Origin: Octopus vulgaris
Taxonomy: Eukaryota
Assembly: GCA_951406725.2 (NCBI GenBank)
Contig: OX597821.1
Span: 52,948,001-53,012,000, forward strand
Length of the DNA: 64,000 nt
Direction of reading: 5' to 3'
In this document: piece after piece, positions 3,545 to 48,122 of the stretch
Layout of the letters: every line of letters begins with the position of its first letter
Numbering within the stretch: position 1 is the first letter of the stretch
Notes under the pieces: generated by a model
What the model was told of the DNA's origin: nothing
Seen by the model: only the letters and a program-made list of their open reading frames with translations
The model's database searches: none
Program-made: the position numbers and the translations under genes

Positions 3545-3714
3545 GTGTATATACAGTATATATACATGAATGTATATATATATACATATATATAAAATAA
3601 AACGAATGGTTTAAACTTGGTAGGTTACTGGTAAAGCACGGTTACTTGCCTAGTGATCTTTAGGTGTATGGTAAATGAAAGACGGAAGATGGAATATACG
3701 AGAATTTATTATTA

Positions 3715-3820
3715 ATCTCGGCAATTGTTTCGACACATCTACCATCGATTCCTCATGGGTGGAACACTCAACAGCTGGTTCAGGGCCATCTGTTGGCGCT
3801 GATGTATCTCTTCGGGTGAT
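3715..3820 (-). ncRNA. Degenerate type-I hammerhead ribozyme motif
   Basis: Minus strand: atcac-CCGAAGA-gatacatc...gatgtgtc-GAAA-caattg-CC-gagat. It has an 8-bp stem II and palindromic loop III, but the cleavage UH is mutated to CC. Confidence 0.6.
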
Positions 3821-4231
3821 GAATAAATAGAAGTCGTTAAAATGACCGTTCCTGTTCCGCAATGTAACTTTCCGTTTTGTAGAAAGAGAAGCAGCCAGAC
3901 AGAGGAAATACCTTCAAAATAAAATTATAGATGGCAAAAAGAGAAACGAACGTGCAATCCAGCGAGAATAGTATTTAAAATAACCGTTAACAGATATGAA
4001 TATATAAACGCCCTTGGGCAAGCTGCATAGCGCTTTCACACTCGCTCATACATGCATCCGCAAAAATGTGAGCATAAGCACACGTGAGGTTTGGTGCACT
4101 TAAGATCACAAAGACAGTTAGTTATCTGCTTGGTGGTTTATAAGACTGGGAAGGTGAAAAGTAAATTTAAGTTATCCATACATTAAATTAAATCAATTTA
4201 ATTTAAGTTAAGGATTACTCGAAATTAATTC

Positions 4232-4660
4232 TCACTGCATTGTGTGGAAAGTACATTTATATGCGTGTAGGCATCTTGAGAGTCGTTCAGAAATTCTATT
4301 AATGATCTCGTTAGTTCACAGAATAGACAGAGATTCCTCGGAGCAGAGACGGCATCTCCTGGAAATTATATTGTATGGTTTCGCGTACCTTCCTATGGAC
4401 AAATTAATGCTGTAATTCATTTTACCCTCCTTCAGTCGCCATACAAAATCTGCCAAAGATGATGTTGAATGTCTATTATTGATTGTCTTAAAGCTGGCAA
4501 CATGGTTACGATAACGATTCTCAAATGAATCATCCGTGTTCCCAATGTAAACACACGCGCTTCCACTTGTGTGCACGGTACATTTATATACATGATTTGT
4601 TCTCATACAGACGTTCATCAAATGTCATTTTGATTTTTCACTGCATGAGAATTTATCGTA
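4232..4660 (-). pseudogene. PLE GIY-YIG endonuclease domain (Naiad/Neptune-like), with in-frame stops
   Basis: Translates as FSCSEKSK*HLMNVCMRTNHVYKCTV..VYIGNT..FENRYRNHVASF..LADFVWRLK..AKPY..CRLCSEE..SIL*TNEIINRISERLSRCLH. This matches the PLE pattern CxCx4-5CPLxxC..VY..YIG..RyxnHxxsF..CxLCxxE..NxxxE..CxH. Confidence 0.8.
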
Positions 4661-8657: not shown

Positions 8658-10286
8658 CAGTTGCGGCCAAAATGTTCAGAACGGCATTGTTTTCGACAGA
8701 AAAGTAGGTATAATTTTTTATCAAATTTGTTTTATATTCTATAATTTTCACAGACAATGAATACAATATCATTTGTTATTATCTGAGATTTTCGTGTAAT
8801 TTGAGAGGATAATGCAAAAGTCATGGATGATTTAGGGATTTACTGCAAAACCCATGGCGGCCAAACTGATCAGAACGGTTGCTTTTACTCCGTGTTTTAG
8901 TATATTGAACCGGCGAACTCTAATGTTTTGAATTTGTTTACTTGACGGTTCGTTTACTAAACATTAGTAAGAATATCTGCAGTGTACTTTGTTTATATAA
9001 TGCCACTTACTCCGTTACAAATTCGTCAGCAGATTATTAAGCTTCGAAAGAAGGATAATTTAAGTATTGGGTATATTGCAAAGATTGTTAACAAGTCAAA
9101 AAGTGTTGTTCATGGTATACTTAAGGTCTACGATGATCGTGGTTCGTGTGAAGCAAGGAAGTCTACAGGTAGGCCAAGAAAAACGACCAAGAGAGAAGAT
9201 CGTGCTATGGTAAAGTTGGTTAAAAAGGACAGATTTAAAACTGCTGCTGCTGTTTCTTGGGAAATGAGCATTGTACTGAAGAAAACTTTATCTCGAAAAA
9301 CTGTGTCTCGTCGTTTAGTTGAACATGACCTACAAGCAAGAGCACCTGCAGTTGAAGCCACTGATCAGCTCCAAGAATAAAAAGTGTCGTCTTACCTTTG
9401 CAACCGAACATGTGTTGTGGTCTCAAGAAAAATGGCAAACGGTGCATTTCAGTGATGAATATAAGTTTATGCTATTTGGCTCAGATGGGAAAAGGTACGT
9501 TCGTCGAAAAGTAGGTGAAAAATTGTCGACTAAATGCCTTAAGACTAGTGTTAAGTTCGGTGGAGGAAGTATGGTTTGGGGGATGATATCTGGAGATGGT
9601 GTGGGCTCTTTGGTGCGATTACATGTTAAGTTAAATGCAGGAGTTTATAAACAACTTGTAAAAGATCATGTCTTGCCTGTGCTGAGGAATTCAACTAAGC
9701 GACCACCCATATTCATGCAGGACAATGCCCCATGTCACAAGGCTAAGGTGGTCATGAACTTCCTCAAGGCTGAAAAGGTTATTGTCATGGATTGGCCTGC
9801 TCAAAGCCCAGATCTCAATCCTATTGAAAATGTGTGGAATATTCTAGGGGAAAGTTCGAAAGTCAGAAATCCTAAAACAACCAAGCAATTATGGAATGCC
9901 CATCAGGAAGAAAATTGAATAAGATCACCCAGCAAGAAATTGAAAATTTAGTTTCCTCATGCAGTCTAAGATGACAAAGAGTGGTTGAAGCTAAAGGGCT
10001 TCGCGCTAAATATTAAATAATTCCAGTATACTCTGTCATTTTTGATTATTTTGTTATTTTTTCAACCATTCTGATCATTTTGGCCGCCATAGGTTTTGCA
10101 GTAAATCCCTAAATCATCCATAACTTTTGTATTATCCTCTCAAATTACACCAGAATCTCAGATAATAGCGAATAATATTGTATTTATTGTCTGTGAAAAT
10201 TATAGAATATAAAACAACTTTGATAAAAAGTTATACCTACTTTTCTGACGGAAACAATGCCGTTCTGAATATTATGACCGTCACTG
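8658..10286 (+). mobile_element. Near-full-length Tc1 family DNA transposon, IR/DR type, TA target duplication
   Basis: TIRs of about 225 bp (8658-8881 and about 10062-10286) start with CAGT. Each carries an outer and inner direct repeat (gcggccaaaatgttcagaacgg / gcggccaaactgatcagaacgg). TA flanks both ends and a transposase lies inside. Confidence 0.95.
9000..10016 (+). pseudogene. Tc1 DD34E transposase with frameshifts and a stop
   Basis: MPLTPLQIRQQII..GRPRKT (paired-like HTH), frameshift near 9350, then FSDE..MVWG..QDNAPCH..WPAQSPDLNPIENVW with 34 residues between D and E. Further lesions near 9915 and 9972; ends KY*. Confidence 0.93.
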
Positions 10287-13008: not shown

Positions 13009-16000
13009 CATATATTAGTATATATAGATGTATACATACGCACACACATACACACACACAAACACACACATGTTCCATCTCAGTTAGATGGTGTGTTGTA
13101 ATCGTTGATAATGGTGTGGTCTCTAATTTATGCCTACTCTTTTTTTTTTTTGCTTTTTCACATGTCGTGAATGGCTAAACATTCTCTGTTACGTAACTGT
13201 TCCTTTTATTGCATGTTAAAGGGTTTGTGCTTTTTACAAAATATGTTATTTTATATTCTTATATTTATCATTTTTTTTCACTTAATCAAAGTACAAGTCA
13301 TTGCTTGTTTGCTTCGCGGCCAAGTTTGTTTTGGCGTGTATGGACCTGTGTTTGTGAATATTGATGTTTTGGTTGACTGATTTTGCCGGAAGAATTTCAG
13401 TGATGAAGTGAATGTAACACTGCGCAATAATTAGCAAACACGTCCCCTTAAACTGCACAAACACCTGAACAATAGAAATATCAGCTACAACTACGCAAGA
13501 ACATAGATGATATAAATTCACTAAGCATACGAATAAACACTTGATACAGAGTCATAACAATCACAGGTCCATGCAGCTGGCTCACAGAATGCACATACTC
13601 ATTGCATGGAAACTAATTAAAATACGAAAGAATTATACAATTTCATGAAAAGTTAGAAAGAAACGCAACGTCCCTGTATAGGGAGATGTGGGAGTTAATG
13701 GAAACAGTATAAACAGTAAATATGCAATGTAAAATAACAGATTACGATCTATGCGGTATAAATGTCACTGGAATCTTGCTGCTCTGGTCCGCGGAAAAAA
13801 CGTGCCATCTCAAAATTTAATCACAAAAGTAAATACTTATGAATTAAAATTAATGAAAATCCTACCACACTGCAAAAGCCAAAATAAATCCACTTTTTAT
13901 ATATAGACCTTGCTCCAAATAACAACCACCAGACCTTTCTTCAAAATACACGCAAAATAGTTACACCCACATAAATTGGCATTCAGCGAATCAGCAGAAA
14001 TTAAGTACTCAGACCAGCCTACATACGTATATGCAAAGACAAATTAAAAAGAAGCCTTCTTTGAAATAGATACATAAACATAGATACCAATAAACAAGAT
14101 AAAAACAAACCTTGCCCAAAACATAAGCAATAGCATTCACACTTGAATGCGAGCGTACCCAAACATTTATAATGAAAAATCATACGCAGTCCAATGTAAT
14201 AAACACAACATTTTAATTAAAACAGCACAGAATCTCAATAAGCCATCGAAACTACTCATCTTAGGAAAAAATATTTTTTCACTGCTGAAACTTATTTCCA
14301 AATACATTAGCAGAAGCTACTCAACATAAAATGCCACTTTCGTTCACAGAAATTCATCAATATGCGTGTCCTTAATTATTTTCACTCAGAAACCAAGAAT
14401 TCGTTATAACTCCCTCATTTTCACAAAAAAATGTCATTAACAGAGCTGTCTTATTAGAGCATGAATATTTGCGAATAAAACGTTACATAGCGAAACAAAC
14501 TTGACCAAAAGTATAGGACTAGCTAAGTGAACATTTCGGAAATATACAAATACAAAACAGAACAAATTAAAAACACCCTCTCACCAACAAATCCCACAAA
14601 GCATAGCAGTGAACCAACTGCAGTAACAGACTGTAGGTTTTATATAATCACTTAGACACACAGTGGGTGACAAAGTAATACGCAAAAATGATTATTTTCA
14701 GTACGAAGATAAAAAGGTTATTATAAAAAAACACCCCAAAACAAAAAGAAAAATCGACGAAAATAATATTAGCTAAGTTATAAAACTCCATACGGGTATT
14801 TTGATCATGATCTTCCACGTTTACAGGCGGAATGTATTTCGCTGCGGAAACTGTCTGAGGAAATACATTCTCTGTTCAGAGAATGTGTCTGAAAACACAT
14901 AAAGCCGAGATATGAATAGAAATATGAATGGAGTCATCGGACACGTGTTTATGTATTGTTACACTGCGTCATCCATGGCCCATTTAAACTGTGATTATAT
15001 TTAAACAAGTATTGTATTTTTTGGAGATTGCAAAAATTGCTGATGTGTGCAAAGCTGAAATTTATTAAAGGCACACTAAGTAGTGTTGATTAAAACAAAG
15101 TTATACTAAATATCATAAAGTTGTCATTAGCAAGTTGTGTAAGTTTGCCACTTTCAAATAAAGTATGGTGCCTCCAATAAGCAACCATACAATGCCATCG
15201 CCTAGATTTCCCTTTCAATGATTTTACAAGAGTTATATTTTCAAAGCGAAAGGGATTGATATTGAACGCGAAACAACATTTCATAGTAAATTCTATTGCG
15301 GCCGCTATGCTTGCTTCCATTTTGAAGAAGATATCCCAATTACCGGTCGCCATATTTCCAGTACTTATATTGCATGATGATACTGAGATGCGAAGAAGTT
15401 GAATGAATGAGAATTTCCTCATTTATTTTGAAGTTACCTGTGAGCCGGTGCTAGAAAAGTGCCCACTGGACATAAACTGCAATCGACTAATTAACCATAG
15501 TGATTTACAATTGAATGTTACGTGCAACCAGAATGTTCTTGTGTGAAAAATTGTTTACAATGTTACTGAAATGTTGAGATACCACTTTGCATTAGTGTAT
15601 ATCTTCGATGTACTTATCAGGAATACATTCACAGATATACATACATTCTTATACATACACATACCCGCGACTACTTTATATACAATCATTAAATATCTAT
15701 AATATAGCTACGTCTACCCCGCAAGATATACTTCATCGTGCAGCCCTATTGAAAGCGTATCACCTGCGACCAAACCTTTTTTACAGGAACTGCATTGTGA
15801 AAGGCATCCAATTTTCTGAATAGTACTAGGGTGAGCTTTGTGAAAGAATCGGCTGTTATTTCTAACGTGTCAATTAACACTTAAATGTTCTTTCGATGAT
15901 TCACAATAATTGTAGTGGTTGTGTGTATCCTCTTTCTTGTCTTGACCTCGTGAATAATTAATTAGGGAGGTAGAACCTTCGTCATTTGGAAGCTTCCCGA

Positions 16001-16586
16001 TGCTTGGCTAATCCAATTCAGGACAAGAAGGCAGGACACATCTGCAGCGGTTGTGTAGAAATGTGGGCTGGTCAGGATTGGTCGTAGTATCTTTTTATCC
16101 TCCGTTTAATTTTGTTTGCATGGGTGGTCCTCCAGGTTAGCATTTCATTAACTATAGATTGGTTGTGTGTTGTGTTTTGTGTGTATTTGCTTATATATGT
16201 ATATATATAGTAGCATAGTTATTAGTTGTTATAGAATTAAGTGTTCTGCATTTCAATATATAAGATCGTAATTCCATATTTTAAACTTTACTTCAAACTT
16301 TCAAAGTGTTTCATATTGGAAACAACTTAGTTTCTTCTATTATAGGATGTATTACTAGATGCATCGTAAACTCTGATGATAAATTTAGAAGCAAATAGAG
16401 ATTCTTTTGGTTGATGGATACATCTTTCAAGTACGTATGTATGCATGTATGTATGTGTATATGTATGTTTGTATATATATTCTGCCTTCGTCTTTTGTTT
16501 ATTTTCGTAAACCTGCCCGTTATGCATATATATACATATACATTATTTACATTTGTCGGATATTTGTCCCCATCTTGTTTGTTTTT

Positions 16587-16632
16587 AATACAACGTTTCG
16601 GCTGATATGCCCTCAAGTCTTCATCAGGTGTC
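16587..16632 (-). ncRNA. Minimal type-I hammerhead ribozyme motif
   Basis: gacac-CTGATGA-agact..agcc-GAAA-cg-TT-gtatt, with palindromic AACGTT at stem III. The partner arm (17256-17302, +) has a decayed core, CTGTTAA. Confidence 0.65.
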
Positions 16633-16715
16633 TTGGGGAAATTTCCGACATGGGTTCTCATTCTTAAGGTACTTTTCGATGTTGCTGTTGTTGTTATTAT
16701 TATCATTATTATTAA

Positions 16716-16748: not shown

Positions 16749-17120
16749 TTTTTTTTTTCTTCTTTCAAATTTTCTTCCATTTCTTGCCGAGTGTCTTCCC
16801 GACTCCTAGGGCAAAGAAACTCATAGTGTATATTGGTAGGCCATTAAACCAAACTCAGTAGTTCGTTCATTTTTTTTTTTTTTTTTTTAAGTTAAATTAA
16901 AATGCATGATCAGCAACAGTTCTCACATCGACAATGCTCTTCTCAATACGTGTGATGTACCAGTTAAGACAATCTTTTGCACTTCTTGCAGGGATGGTAA
17001 GCCAGGGATCATTCTCATATAATTTTCGGTTCCCTTCTTGATCATTCCTAGTGCTCCTACGATCACTGGTATTGTAACCGCATTGAGATGCCACATTTTC
17101 TCAACTTCAATGAGTAGGTC

Positions 17121-17123: not shown

Positions 17124-17202
<79 letters not shown>

Positions 17203-17413
17203 TCAATATCGAAAAATACCTTGGGATTGAAAGCCCAGGTTCAAAATTTCCTGAAGATACCTGTTAAAGACTTAGAGGGTATATCACCCGAAACGTTGTG
17301 TTAACAACAAACAAGATGAGGCCAAATATCCGTCAAATGTAAATAATGTACATAATTCTTCATCTCTTAAATATACAACTGTATATAAGCATTCATGCAT
17401 ATATACATACATG

Positions 17414-22257: not shown

Positions 22258-23678
<1,421 letters not shown>

Positions 23679-24224
23679 TATATCATATATACATATGTAT
23701 GTAGCAGTTGTAGTTTGAATAAGGTTTATGTATTCAGTATTCAACGAATGTGGTCTCTTAAACAGAAACAGTAAAAGACAGGAAATTTGTTCTTTCCCAT
23801 TCATCTAGAGTATAGGCGATTTCAGGTTGTCGAAGGTTTAAAGTATAATAAAAGAGGTCAGCATTCTCAATTACATATTGACCACATACTGTCAAATTAA
23901 TGTAGAACATTCTTTACAGCAAAGTGTTCTTTCTTCGATAACGTACATGTGCGTCATGTGACCACGAAGCTTACGAATAACGTGTTTCTGTGTTAAACAA
24001 AGTGCCATGTCAGATTATGCTTACTGGCATCCAATTACACAGTTCTCTCATAAATAGAGAATTTTCGGTGAAAAGGTGATCGTCCGAATTAGTGAGGATA
24101 ACAAATACGTAAGTCTTATTTTCTCAACATAGAATTATAAGAGTTATCCAAGGCTGTGACTGAAGTTATGCATGCATAATATGTATATACATGTATCGCA
24201 TATAGACACATATTGATATATTAT

Positions 24225-24420
24225 TTTATTCTTTACTTTGTTTCAGACCATGCTGGAGCACAGCCTTTAGTCGAGCAAATCGACCCCAGGATTTATTCTT
24301 TGTAAACCTAGTACTTACTCGATCGGGCTCTTTTGCCGAACCGCTAATTTACGGGGACGTAAATACATCAATATCGATTATCAAGCGATGTTGGCGGGAC
24401 AAACACAGACATAGATATAT
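24225..24420 (-). mobile_element. SINE family A, 3' half
   Basis: Matches the 3' half of 12451-12852. Confidence 0.8.
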
Positions 24421-24421
24421 T

Positions 24422-24479
<58 letters not shown>

Positions 24480-24577
24480 TAAGGGCTCCTAAATTAGGAT
24501 GCCGAGTACTGGGAACACAAAAGGGAGATGAATTTATCGAGAGTGAAAATCAAAAACGTTTACCGATAACTTTACAC

Positions 24578-24651
24578 CTCGGACTGATTAGTTTCTGCCT
24601 CTTTCTAGCAAAACACAGAATATGTTTGCTAAGGCTGGCTTCATCAACGAG
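24578..24651 (-). ncRNA. Type-I hammerhead motif (inverted arm copy)
   Basis: Same as 25105-25178 except that loop III reads ctaatcag. Confidence 0.65.
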
Positions 24652-25104
24652 TAGCCTAAATTGAATCGAGGTCTGCAGCGATGTGAGACCATGTGTTGAT
24701 CTGGACTACTAGCAGATCTTAACTTTTCAAATCTCTGCGCAGACGCAAAACTTACACGGCAGTATAGGGCATGCCGGGAAGTGTGTTCCCAGTACTCGGC
24801 ATCCTAATTTAGGAGCCCTTAATTGTATTACTACATGAATAATATTTTTCTTTATGATTAATATTTTGTCTTATGACTAATTCGTCTTTTGTGCTGGGCA
24901 CCTGGCAGTAACTAATTATTACTACCCTTCTTGTTTATATTCGCATATTACTTGATGAATTTATTCGTAAAATTCTTCCCGGCATGCCCTATACTGCCGT
25001 GTAAGTTTTGCGTCTGCGCAGAGATTTGAAAAGTTAAGATCTGCTAGTAGTCCAGATCAACACATGGTCTCACATCGCTGCAGACCTCGATTCAATTTAG
25101 GCGA

Positions 25105-25178
25105 CTCGTTGATGAAGCCAGCCTTAGCAAACATATTCTGTGTTTTGCTAGAAAGAGGCAGAAACTGATCAGTCCGAG
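25105..25178 (+). ncRNA. Type-I hammerhead motif (U3 core variant)
   Basis: ctcg-TTGATGA-a gcc..ggc a-GAAA-ctgatcag-TC-cgag; palindromic stem/loop III and a GUC site at 25172-25174. Confidence 0.72.
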
Positions 25179-25397
25179 GTGTAAAGTTATCGGTAAACGA
25201 TTTTGATTTTCACTCTCGATAAATTCATCTCCCTTCTGTGTTCCCAGTACTCGGCATCCTAATTTAGGAGCCCTTAATTGTATTACTACATGAATAATAT
25301 TTTTCTTTATGATTAATATTTTGTCTTATGACTAATTCGTCTTTTGTGCTGGGCACCTGGTAGTAACTAATTATTACTAACCTTCTTGTTTATATTC

Positions 25398-25455
<58 letters not shown>

Positions 25456-25744
25456 GAAGCTGCTACAGAAAATTAATCGGGTTGCATATGCAACTGCTCA
25501 TACTCTCTGCGGCGGAAACGCATGTAGGTCATCGTAACCACCATGATAATGTCTTGTGTGACATTGTAAAATAAAAGGAAATAAATTTTCAGGATGTACC
25601 AATCTCCATAGTCACTATCGTTATGATTCTTTTTAAGAAAAGAAAGCATTTTCATGCAGGCTCATGCAAATTTTACCCTCCCTCCACACTTCACTTTTAA
25701 ACAAACAAATTCCATAACCCTAGTAATCCACTGTACTACATATT

Positions 25745-37372: not shown

Positions 37373-37660
37373 ATTAGAGACAAAACCACTATTAGGCAAA
37401 TAATACAATGAAAAACTTAAGCCAATACATAAGATTATTTAATTTATATCATTTAAATATATAACAAAATTATTAAAAAAATATAATTAATATATCACTA
37501 CGATCGTTTCATGACTATTAATTTCTTTAAATTTTCGAGTTACAGTCATTCATCAGGTGGTTTAAGTATCTAAAATATAATCAATATTTTTAAGATATAA
37601 ATAATATATATAATATAATATAATAATTTTCCTGTAAGTTTGGATTTATTCCCTAATATT
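37373..37660 (-). mobile_element. AT-rich PLE-like element with HHR between (TA)n tracts
   Basis: Weak terminal inversion (tattagagacaaaacc / ggatttattccctaata) and a canonical HHR inside. Confidence 0.6.
37494..37561 (-). ncRNA. Type-I hammerhead ribozyme motif, canonical core
   Basis: accac-CTGATGA-atgact..agtcat-GAAA-cgatcg-TA-gtgat; 6-bp stem II, palindromic loop III, GUA site. Confidence 0.8.
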
Positions 37661-37663
37661 TAT

Positions 37664-46036: not shown

Positions 46037-46707
46037 ATCATTACTTCCACCATCACCATTTATCTTTCTCTGTTATTTATCGCACACTTCCTTTATTTCT
46101 ATCTCTCTATTGATACCAATTTCCGCCCCAAATATTTTTCCCTTTCCTGTCTAATCACACTGTCTAGTTACTTTGTTAAATGTTCTTCTTTCTCTCTCTC
46201 TCACAGTTTCTCTCCATCCATCTCCATTTAAGATTATCAATGTCAACATAACAGCGGCCACCCGAGGTACGCCAATAATATGACGACTAAGTCGTCATTC
46301 AGTTATTTCATTTAGCGTACACAGAAGGTAGGTAACGCTGCCACACTCTCTCTCTCTGTACATATATTTGTGTGTTTTTATATATGTGTATATATACAAA
46401 TATGTTTGCGTGTGCATATATACATACATATATAGAAATACATACAAACATATACATACATACTTACTTATATGTATATATATATATATATAGCAATAAT
46501 AATTCTCTAAAAGGGATATAGACAGTAACTGCTCGATAACATAAGGGACTAAAGCCATCTGAATATGGCTAGGGACAGGGCAGGGTGGTGGGGGTGTTAC
46601 TGTTGCATTTAGCCCCAGGCGAACATCGACGTCACCAGAAAGGCTCGACACCGTCACGGTGCCCTAAACCTGCAAAGGGAGGTAATTCCCCGATGAAGCG
46701 GAAACCA

Positions 46708-46753
46708 CACACGGACCATGGTTTCAAGGTGTATTGCCTATTATCGGCGTGTG
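46708..46753 (-). ncRNA. Hammerhead motif, copy 1 (core CCGAUAA, G8A)
   Basis: cacacg-CCGATAA-t agg..cct t-GAAA-ccatgg-TC-cgtgtg. Confidence 0.65.
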
Positions 46754-47066
46754 GTAGGCCTCCGCTTCCTCGACGAATTCTCACTATGCAGGATTTCTTA
46801 TATAGATTTTCAAGCAAAATACATTTGCTGATTTCGAAAATCTGTTCGAAAGCAATAATAATTCTCTAAAAGGGATATAGACAGTAACTGCTCGATAACA
46901 TAAGGGACTAAAGCCATCTGAATATGGCTAGGGACAGGGCAGGGTGGTGGGGGTGTTACTGTTGCATTTAGCCCCAGGCGAACATCGACGTCACCAGAAA
47001 GGCTCGACACCGTCACGGTGCCCTAAACCTGCAAAGGGAGGTAATTCCCCGATGAAGCGGAAACCA

Positions 47067-47112
47067 CACACGGACCATGGTTTCAAGGTGTATTGCCTAT
47101 TATCGGCGTGTG
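47067..47112 (-). ncRNA. Hammerhead motif, copy 2 (core CCGAUAA, G8A)
   Basis: Identical to copy 1. Confidence 0.65.
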
Positions 47113-47425
47113 GTAGGCCTCCGCTTCCTCGACGAATTCTCACTATGCAGGATTTCTTATATAGATTTTCAAGCAAAATACATTTGCTGATTTCGAAAAT
47201 CTGTTCGAATGCAATAATAATTCTCTAAAAGGGATATAGACAGTAACTGCTCGATAACATAAGGGACTAAAGCCATCTGAATATGGCTAGGGACAGGGCA
47301 GGGTGGTGGGGGTGTTACTGTTGCATTTAGCCCCAGGCGAACATCGACGTCACCAGAAAGGCTCGACACCGTCACGGTGCCCTAAACCTGCAAAGGGAGG
47401 TAATTCCCCGATGAAGCGGAAACCA

Positions 47426-47471
47426 CACACGGACCATGGTTTCAAGGTGTATTGCCTATCATCGGCGTGTG
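47426..47471 (-). ncRNA. Hammerhead motif, copy 3 (core CCGAUGA)
   Basis: cacacg-CCGATGA-t agg caataca cct t-GAAA-ccatgg-TC-cgtgtg. Confidence 0.78.
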
Positions 47472-47843
47472 GTAGGCCTCCGCTTCCTCGACGAATTCTC
47501 ACTATGCAGGATTTCTTATATAGATTTTCAAGCAAAATACATTTGCTGATTTCGAAAATCTGTTCGAAAGCAATAATAATTCTCTAAAAGGGATATAGAC
47601 AGTAACTGCTCGATAACATAAGGGACTAAAGCCATCTGAATATGGCTAGGGACAGGGCAGGGTGGTGGGGGTGTTACTGTTGCATTTAGTCCCTTATGTT
47701 ATCGAGCAGTTACTGTCTATATCCCTTTTAGAGAATTATTATTGCTTTCGAACAGATTTTCGAAATCAGCAAATGTATTTTGCTTGAAAATCTATATAAG
47801 AAATCCTGCATAGTGAGAATTCGTCGAGGAAGCGGAGGCCTAC

Positions 47844-47889
47844 CACACGCCGATGATAGGCAATACACCTTGAAACCATGGTCCGTGTG
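47844..47889 (+). ncRNA. Hammerhead motif in the inverted copy (core CCGAUGA)
   Basis: Core 47850-47856, GAAA 47872-47875, palindrome ccatgg, predicted cleavage after C47883. Stem I is extended by gaagcgga/tccgcttc. Confidence 0.78.
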
Positions 47890-48050
47890 TGGTTTCCGCT
47901 TCATCGGGGAATTACCTCCCTTTGCAGGTTTAGGGCACCGTGACGGTGTCGAGCCTTTCTGGTGACGTCGATGTTCGCCTGGGGCTAAATGCAACAGTAA
48001 CACCCCCACCACCCTGCCCTGTCCCTAGCCATATTCAGATGGCTTTAGTC

Positions 48051-48122
<72 letters not shown>

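Follow-up and report, generated by a model that had tools for sequence, protein, structure and literature searches.

The locus described here is a 926-base non-coding repeat (positions 24473–25398) within a 64-kb stretch of DNA, referred to below as the window, and it carries two copies of a hammerhead ribozyme (HHR) motif in opposed orientation. The repeat consists of two arms. The direct arm (24782–25398, + strand) is 617 nt long, which, according to BLAST and a base-by-base comparison, amounts to 1.36 periods of 455 nt. It begins with a 5′-truncated upstream copy (24782–24943, + strand, 162 nt) devoid of the HHR and continues with one full 455-nt period (24944–25398, + strand) that has no ORF of a Penelope-like element (PLE). 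The 162 nt recur at 25237–25398 with 2 mismatches, giving the direct arm a terminal redundancy that resembles a pseudo-LTR (pLTR). The inverted arm (24473–24781, − strand) spans 309 nt and represents the reverse complement of positions 24975–25283, with 4 mismatches in 309 positions, no gaps and an E-value of 1e-155; a spacer of 193 nt separates the complementary sequences. The two arms meet head to head at a blunt inversion junction (24781..24782) lacking microhomology, where the HHR-sense 5′ end of the inverted arm is located. These measurements agree closely with a preliminary description of the locus, which had proposed about 1.35 direct copies with a period of 455, a redundancy of about 160 bp and a nearly identical 309-bp inverted arm.

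The duplicated parts of the element differ at 6 of the 471 paired positions (1.3%), and a 47-nt stretch present in triplicate is identical in all three instances. This low divergence bears out the earlier suggestion that the element is young, and the six differences point either to a recent but not brand-new insertion or to a heterogeneous template. The junction between 455-nt units (24943|24944) is seen just once in the element and is not spanned by the inverted arm, so that 455 nt is the putative rather than the proven length of a family monomer. Moreover, BLAST found no second copy of the 455-nt unit in the 64-kb window, and the existence of a family is therefore something that we infer.

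Both sides of the element are formed by pure (TA)n tracts, the left one at 24411–24475 (TRF and sequence) and the right one at 25399–25454 (TRF; 28 perfect units). There is no discernible target-site duplication at this insertion site. Next to the left tract lies the tail of an older SINE (24208–24411, − strand) whose head is absent. BLAST detected five other copies of this SINE in the window, with 77–87% identity, all of which keep both the head and the tail with an internal (TA)n tract in between. Thus, as proposed initially, the setting is a (TA)n tract beside a truncated SINE; the 455-nt element occupies the (TA)n tract of a SINE that has lost its head. In the right flank of the element no match to the SINE head was found; after the right TA tract, the likeness is limited to an initial CG and a loose similarity over 10 nt. 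When the SINE reading frame was compared with predicted proteins, three of the four matches came from Octopus vulgaris (best 93%), and Argonauta was also matched, which makes an octopod the likely host.

The HHR motif of the direct arm (25096–25185, + strand) has its core surrounded by three stems, of which stem I is open, as in type I HHRs, and its predicted cut falls after C 25174. Stem I (25105–25108/25175–25178) has a bulged extension and is followed by the core UUGAUGA (25109–25115), a 45-nt stem II (25116–25160), GAAA (25161–25164) and a 10-nt palindrome that makes up stem III (25164–25173), all on the + strand. Compared with the consensus (C3 U4 G5 A6 N7 G8 A9 / G12 A13 A14, A15.1–U16.1, H17), the sole departure in the core is U3, which results in a U3·G8 wobble. 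Stem II consists of an A·A mismatch, 3 bp, an internal loop and a long hairpin. The base pair 10.1–11.1 that should close stem II is not formed because of this A·A mismatch; alternatively, the base of stem II can be read as a G–C pair with an extra A on either side. In addition, AGCC is repeated in the 5′ strand of stem II, which creates a competing register. The inverted arm has its own HHR motif (24571–24660, − strand), with the core at 24647 and C17 at 24582, so that the two cores lie on opposite strands 462 nt apart. The UUGAUGA core with U3 and G8 that had been reported for both arms was found in each of them, and so was the hairpin within stem II. Since U3 is present in both arms, it must already have been in the template. 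Of the proposed palindromic stem III, only one half stood: the palindrome is intact in the direct arm, CUGAUCAG, and is broken at 24589 in the inverted arm, which reads CUAAUCAG.

An HHR descriptor, written after the motif had been seen, had no matches in 30 shuffled windows, and a stricter descriptor that included the palindrome and was likewise tailored afterwards found nothing comparable in 100 shuffled windows. Rfam reported no hammerhead at the gathering score anywhere in the window and none among the 33 hits at E ≤ 10 in 24400–25500; the other HHR-like motifs of the window were likewise missed at the gathering score. An Rfam match of the element to MIR5048 was discarded, as it merely reflects the long inverted repeat. 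A weak HHR-like match elsewhere in the window (14329–14360, − strand) combines a UUGAUGA core with a stem III that is not palindromic, and is probably due to chance.

Folding estimates suggest how the motif might function. The self-duplex of stem III was estimated at −13.6 kcal/mol for the direct copy versus −0.8 kcal/mol for the inverted one. In a monomer, the core pairs with the palindrome, and reaching the active HHR fold therefore costs about 5–6 kcal/mol relative to the free fold. In a linked-dimer model, the active register costs 0.4 kcal/mol, and both stem I and the intermolecular stem III form unprompted in the free minimum; the model is a nearest-neighbor estimate, and the same procedure applied to the HHR of a 359-nt element in the window (see below) left the active form 11.7 kcal/mol uphill. 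Accordingly modeled, the HHR of the 455-nt unit is predicted to be active only as a dimer. As the direct arm carries one sense HHR only, the locus could not release a 455-nt monomer. It also follows from the sequence that read-through RNA would pair over 309 bp across the whole ribozyme. Given a single sense HHR per strand and such pairing across the ribozyme, the prediction is that this copy represents a dead end.

The 455-nt unit has a GC content of 0.385 (38.5%) and, as in retrozymes, is a short non-coding unit with a type I HHR. An ORF with RT and GIY-YIG domains is absent from the element, the longest stop-free frame being 77 aa. Pfam detected no family above the cut-off in the three frames of the unit that were scanned, and a tblastn comparison of 164 PLE-related proteins with the element returned a single 26-aa match (E 0.048). 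A 65-aa frame running through the HHR (24971–25168), which we take to be loosely reminiscent of a PLE RT motif, was rejected as a chance resemblance: its only Pfam match was to Hyccin (E 0.19), it had no homologs and tblastn lent it no support. An exact scan of GTDB genomes with one 22-nt pattern gave 0 matches.

A remnant of a PLE does exist in the window. It corresponds to the 3′ end of such an element (3594–4621, − strand), with a 3′ region that stretches for about 670 nt from the last matched codon to a TA-rich tract/(TA)n, and a decayed HHR-like motif is found inside this region, near 3756. A word-based protein search with its GIY-YIG part (4265–4621, − strand) yielded nothing; an exhaustive protein search identified 1747 relatives at E ≤ 0.001. 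Among them is an RT+GIY-YIG protein of Argonauta hians, whose Pfam matches are below the curated cut-offs (GIY-YIG, E 0.002; RVT_1, E 0.02). By eye, the remnant resembles the endonuclease end of the Hydra clade. However, there is no homology between the 455-nt unit and the remnant's 3′ region (equally good scores in 89 of 300 shuffles), and visual comparison revealed no match to the published 3′ end of Hydra-1_Obim. The remnant therefore indicates that such elements exist here, and not which one served as the helper.

The orientation of the arms is informative. In the HHR sense both arms point outward, with their 5′ ends at the blunt junction and their 3′ ends on (TA)n. For the inverted and the direct arm, respectively, the 3′ ends lie 109 and 224 nt past the predicted cut, the former with a 3-nt overlap with the (TA)n tract, and the 5′ ends lie at +256 and +63. 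The two 3′ ends are thus offset from each other by 115 nt. None of the four arm boundaries falls at the cut site, and the template was therefore presumably not a cleaved linear monomer.

The layout of the element, a partial tandem (pLTR) with an adjacent inverted, 5′-truncated copy joined head to head, is a published one. PLE insertions form partial tandems, often with an adjacent inverted 5′-truncated copy (PMC8557442), and the same tandem plus inverted-copy arrangement is described in PMC3846280. A (TA)n target is listed for 26 of 27 Hydra-clade families, one of them from Octopus bimaculoides; in one Hydra family, a 5′ inverted copy comes with HHRs on both strands (PMC8557442). Pairs of HHRs on opposite strands, 100–700 bp apart, are reported in PMC4209133. 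The (TA)n target of PLEs is also present here, but their tail of 30–40 nt at one end, described as optional, has no counterpart, given the offset of 115 nt. Furthermore, a purified PLE protein cleaved and extended both strands of AT-rich DNA, started inside the RNA and used mainly unprocessed RNA (PMC11167929).

Taken together, we consider it probable (roughly 60%) that the locus represents a single insertion of an ORF-less, HHR-bearing 455-nt unit, which was copied in trans from an uncleaved multimeric RNA into (TA)n by a PLE reverse transcriptase with a GIY-YIG endonuclease, probably of the Hydra clade. Multimeric RNA would arise from a source locus elsewhere that contains the unit in tandem, and this RNA would stay largely uncut because the HHR is weak (U3·G8, A·A at the base of stem II) and is predicted to need dimerization through the 10-nt palindrome. 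The PLE protein would nick (TA)n and begin reverse transcription inside the RNA. The long arm would be copied across one unit junction and become truncated after 1.36 units. The inverted arm would originate either through a second priming event, on the other strand of the target (known as twin priming), or because the first cDNA folds back and is copied. Judged from its sequence, the locus would thus function in the manner of a monomer derivative of a retrozyme, bearing a PLE footprint, and would be neither an active retrozyme nor an autonomous PLE.

In favor of PLE-mediated insertion we counted the published layout, the opposite-strand HHR pairs of PMC4209133, the mismatch at the stem II base in 15 of 25 Hydra families, the Octopus vulgaris matches of the SINE frame, the (TA)n targeting by the Hydra clade including Octopus, the GIY-YIG remnant in the window, the arm ends lying off the cut site, the in vitro activity of the PLE protein (PMC11167929), the dimer folding and the presence of the 359-nt element with the same polarity. 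Counted against it were the lack of a sequence-linked helper, the single unit junction, the 115-nt offset, the silence of Rfam, the absence of U3 and A·A from the HHRs in the Hydra table, the sub-cut-off Pfam matches of the Argonauta protein and the fact that the Hydra assignment was made by eye. On balance, the original view of the locus as an HHR-bearing retro-insertion of the PLE/retrozyme type fits well with an ORF-less, recent (~1.3%) element that is built like its 359-nt neighbor.

This neighbor (46492–48056) consists of 3.3 units and a 372-nt inverted arm; its HHR has the core CCGAUGA and U·U at the base of stem II. It has the same polarity as the 455-nt element, a 9-nt imperfect microhomology at the junction, and 3′ ends at +173 and +222 that are offset by 49 nt. 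The two monomers at 46742 and 47101, out of three in tandem, carry a G8A substitution that, from the sequence, should inactivate the core; the monomer adjacent to the junction and the inverted arm are intact. The dissimilarity of the 455-nt and 359-nt units, asserted from the start, holds, as 105 of 300 shuffles scored as high as the real comparison. A different conclusion was reached for the accompanying claim that the architecture had recurred independently: the shared layout is the insertion signature of endonuclease-bearing PLEs found in PMC8557442 and PMC3846280, and it would therefore be expected in any two passengers, even unrelated ones, that rely on the same machinery.

Several finer resemblances did not stand up. 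A motif shared by the two elements before their short-arm 3′ ends was not significant (7% of random pairs of 30-nt windows match its score), and neither was a 5-bp hairpin at the inversion junction, a candidate scar of self-priming (equaled by 7% of random joins). The near-coincidence of the long-arm 3′ ends, at +224 in the 455-nt and +222 in the 359-nt element, was noticed after the fact in two cases and was not used as evidence. The stem II hairpin (25121–25154) and a hairpin upstream of the 359-nt HHR (47768–47790) have a common AGCAAA...UUUGCU stem, the best local match between them being not above shuffles.

Other repeats in the window deserve mention. A third HHR element (37378–37662, − strand) comprises a single AT-rich unit, about 285 nt long and flanked by (TA)n tracts; its HHR has a canonical CUGAUGA core (37556), an 8-bp stem II and a palindromic stem III. 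A short repeat bearing a minimal PLE-type HHR occurs in two divergent copies (16530–16690, − strand; 17199–17400, + strand), each of which starts at a (TTA)n tract; the HHR is nearly intact in the former, at 16627, and decayed in the latter, at 17264. A C-terminal fragment of a non-LTR retrotransposon (16926–17117, − strand), which begins at a (TTA)25 tract and has no Pfam match, is presumably R4/Dong-like. A frameshifted Tc1-like transposase is present at 8961–9918 (+ strand; DDE_3, E 3e-13), and the fragments at 22345–22833 and 23168–23458 were labeled transposase-like by eye.

The alternative that survives best retains the PLE helper and replaces the template by a religated 455-nt circular RNA around which the reverse transcriptase ran more than once, in the manner of the rolling model proposed for retrozymes in PMC4209133 and PMC7229834. 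We regard it as a possible but unlikely explanation. A circle would account for a long arm that exceeds one unit and for both arms crossing the cut site intact, yet a linear tandem predicts identical anatomy. The size of 455 nt is close to that of metazoan retrozyme circles (PMC7229834). The unit folded as a circle is somewhat more stable than its shuffled versions (z −2.0; 2 of 60 equally stable), but the antisense circle folds equally well or better (z −2.8). The HHR is also predicted to be weak here, and in vitro the one PLE examined did not require HHR cleavage (PMC11167929). Finally, in the 359-nt array G8A occurs in two adjacent monomers and is absent from the third and from the inverted arm, a pattern more readily explained by a heterogeneous linear multimer, or by a subsequent duplication, than by a single circle, although it comes from a single site in another element.

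Somewhat less likely still is the possibility that the locus comprises three 5′-truncated fragments derived from the long non-coding 3′ end of an ordinary autonomous PLE, in which case 455 nt would simply be the length of the downstream piece. The single occurrence of the unit junction and its absence from the inverted arm are in line with this idea, and the ~670-nt 3′ region of the PLE remnant, with its HHR-like motif, indicates that 455 non-coding nucleotides could fit into a 3′ UTR. On the other hand, the downstream copy of a partial tandem is usually full length (PMC8557442), so that an extra template jump would be needed here, and the 359-nt neighbor with its 3.3 copies demonstrates true ORF-less monomers in this region. 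Post-insertion inversion or duplication through DNA repair at fragile (TA)n, or an assembly artifact, with the HHR as a relic, is very improbable, because even though (TA)n flanks and long inverted repeats are troublesome for assemblies (PMC8557442), the 4 differences per 309 positions between the arms are not expected from an artifact, the two 3′ ends break off precisely at (TA)n and an unrelated element 22 kb away shares the polarity.

If the reading as a PLE-mediated insertion in trans is right, what does it mean? Taken alone, the locus is a single repeat copy, a predicted dead end, that belongs to an already described class. Within the available text of the cited sources, every structural feature has a precedent except the combination of A·A with a long stem II. 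The 455-nt sequence is unreported in the literature searched, where PMC8557442 was the only relevant source for cephalopods; Repbase, Dfam or supplements may hold the family. The link between retrozymes and PLEs as their carriers has so far rested on co-occurrence, phylogeny, shared HHRs and pLTR similarity (PMC7229834; bioRxiv 10.64898/2026.07.22.740005). An ORF-less HHR unit with the PLE inversion-plus-tandem footprint in (TA)n adds structural support for this passenger view. Moreover, short young copies such as the 455-nt element and its 359-nt neighbor make the integration mechanism of PLEs countable across the genome, including fixed versus permuted ends, twin priming versus fold-back, and circle versus linear multimer. 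A far more speculative scenario, to which we give little credence at present, is that Octopus holds several unrelated, still-mobile families of circular-RNA retrozymes, written into (TA)n by Hydra-clade PLE proteins with priming on both target strands, and that the 455-nt family uses a conserved, dimer-gated U3·G8 / A·A hammerhead. If true, insertion junctions would provide direct genomic proof that PLEs mobilize retrozymes.

The closest known systems include the non-LTR retrozymes. Metazoan retrozymes were defined, and PLE helpers and circular templates proposed for them, in PMC7229834; they have also been argued to be non-autonomous PLE derivatives (bioRxiv 10.64898/2026.07.22.740005). As described in these two sources, they are an ORF-less class of 150–450 nt with GC below 50%, a type I HHR, no LTR structure and a proposed PLE helper, all of which are reminiscent of the 455-nt unit. 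In the preprint, a retrozyme is considered active if it has two or more units in a row and each of them includes a complete HHR, and cleavage was observed for one of nine dimers tested. In contrast, the direct arm of the present locus comprises only 1.36 units with a single HHR, and the locus counts as a monomer derivative. It also has an inverted arm, whereas the main text of the preprint does not contain the word "inversion" and has "inverted" only in a reference title. The sample of that study covers 31 vertebrates, 3 insects and 1 anthozoan, and no cephalopods were found in its text.

Also close are EN+ (endonuclease-bearing) PLEs of the Hydra clade, including Hydra-1_Obim (PMC8557442), with which the locus shares the (TA)n target and the partial tandem with a 5′ inverted truncated copy. 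Hydra-clade HHRs are similarly located near the 3′ end, with a short stem I, a stem III of 3–4 bp and, in many cases, a mismatched base of stem II. By our own count of the Hydra-family HHR table in PMC8557442, such a mismatch occurs in 15 of 25 cases (14 U·U and 1 U·C), with neither U3 nor A·A among them; U·U at this position is known and tolerated (PMC3088659). The 455-nt locus differs in having no RT or GIY-YIG ORF, U3 instead of C3, A·A instead of U·U, a 45-nt stem II, 3′ ends offset by 115 nt as opposed to 30–40 nt, and no visible sequence match to Hydra-1_Obim. With the minimal and variant HHRs of PLEs (PMC4209133) it has in common an extra nucleotide after A9, a 4-bp inner stem I, a palindromic helix III and, by prediction, a dimer-dependent design, but its palindrome is longer (10 nt), an extra A precedes G12 and a long hairpin is added to stem II. 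U3 together with G8 is listed there for the PLE HHR Saccoglossus kowalevskii(1), in 1 of the 44 rows of supplement part 2, two other rows with U3 having A8. Finally, although the non-autonomous Chlamys elements such as MRC1 (PMC8557442) come from green algae, use other targets and mostly lack an HHR, they too are ORF-less PLE passengers with pLTRs and head-to-tail copies.
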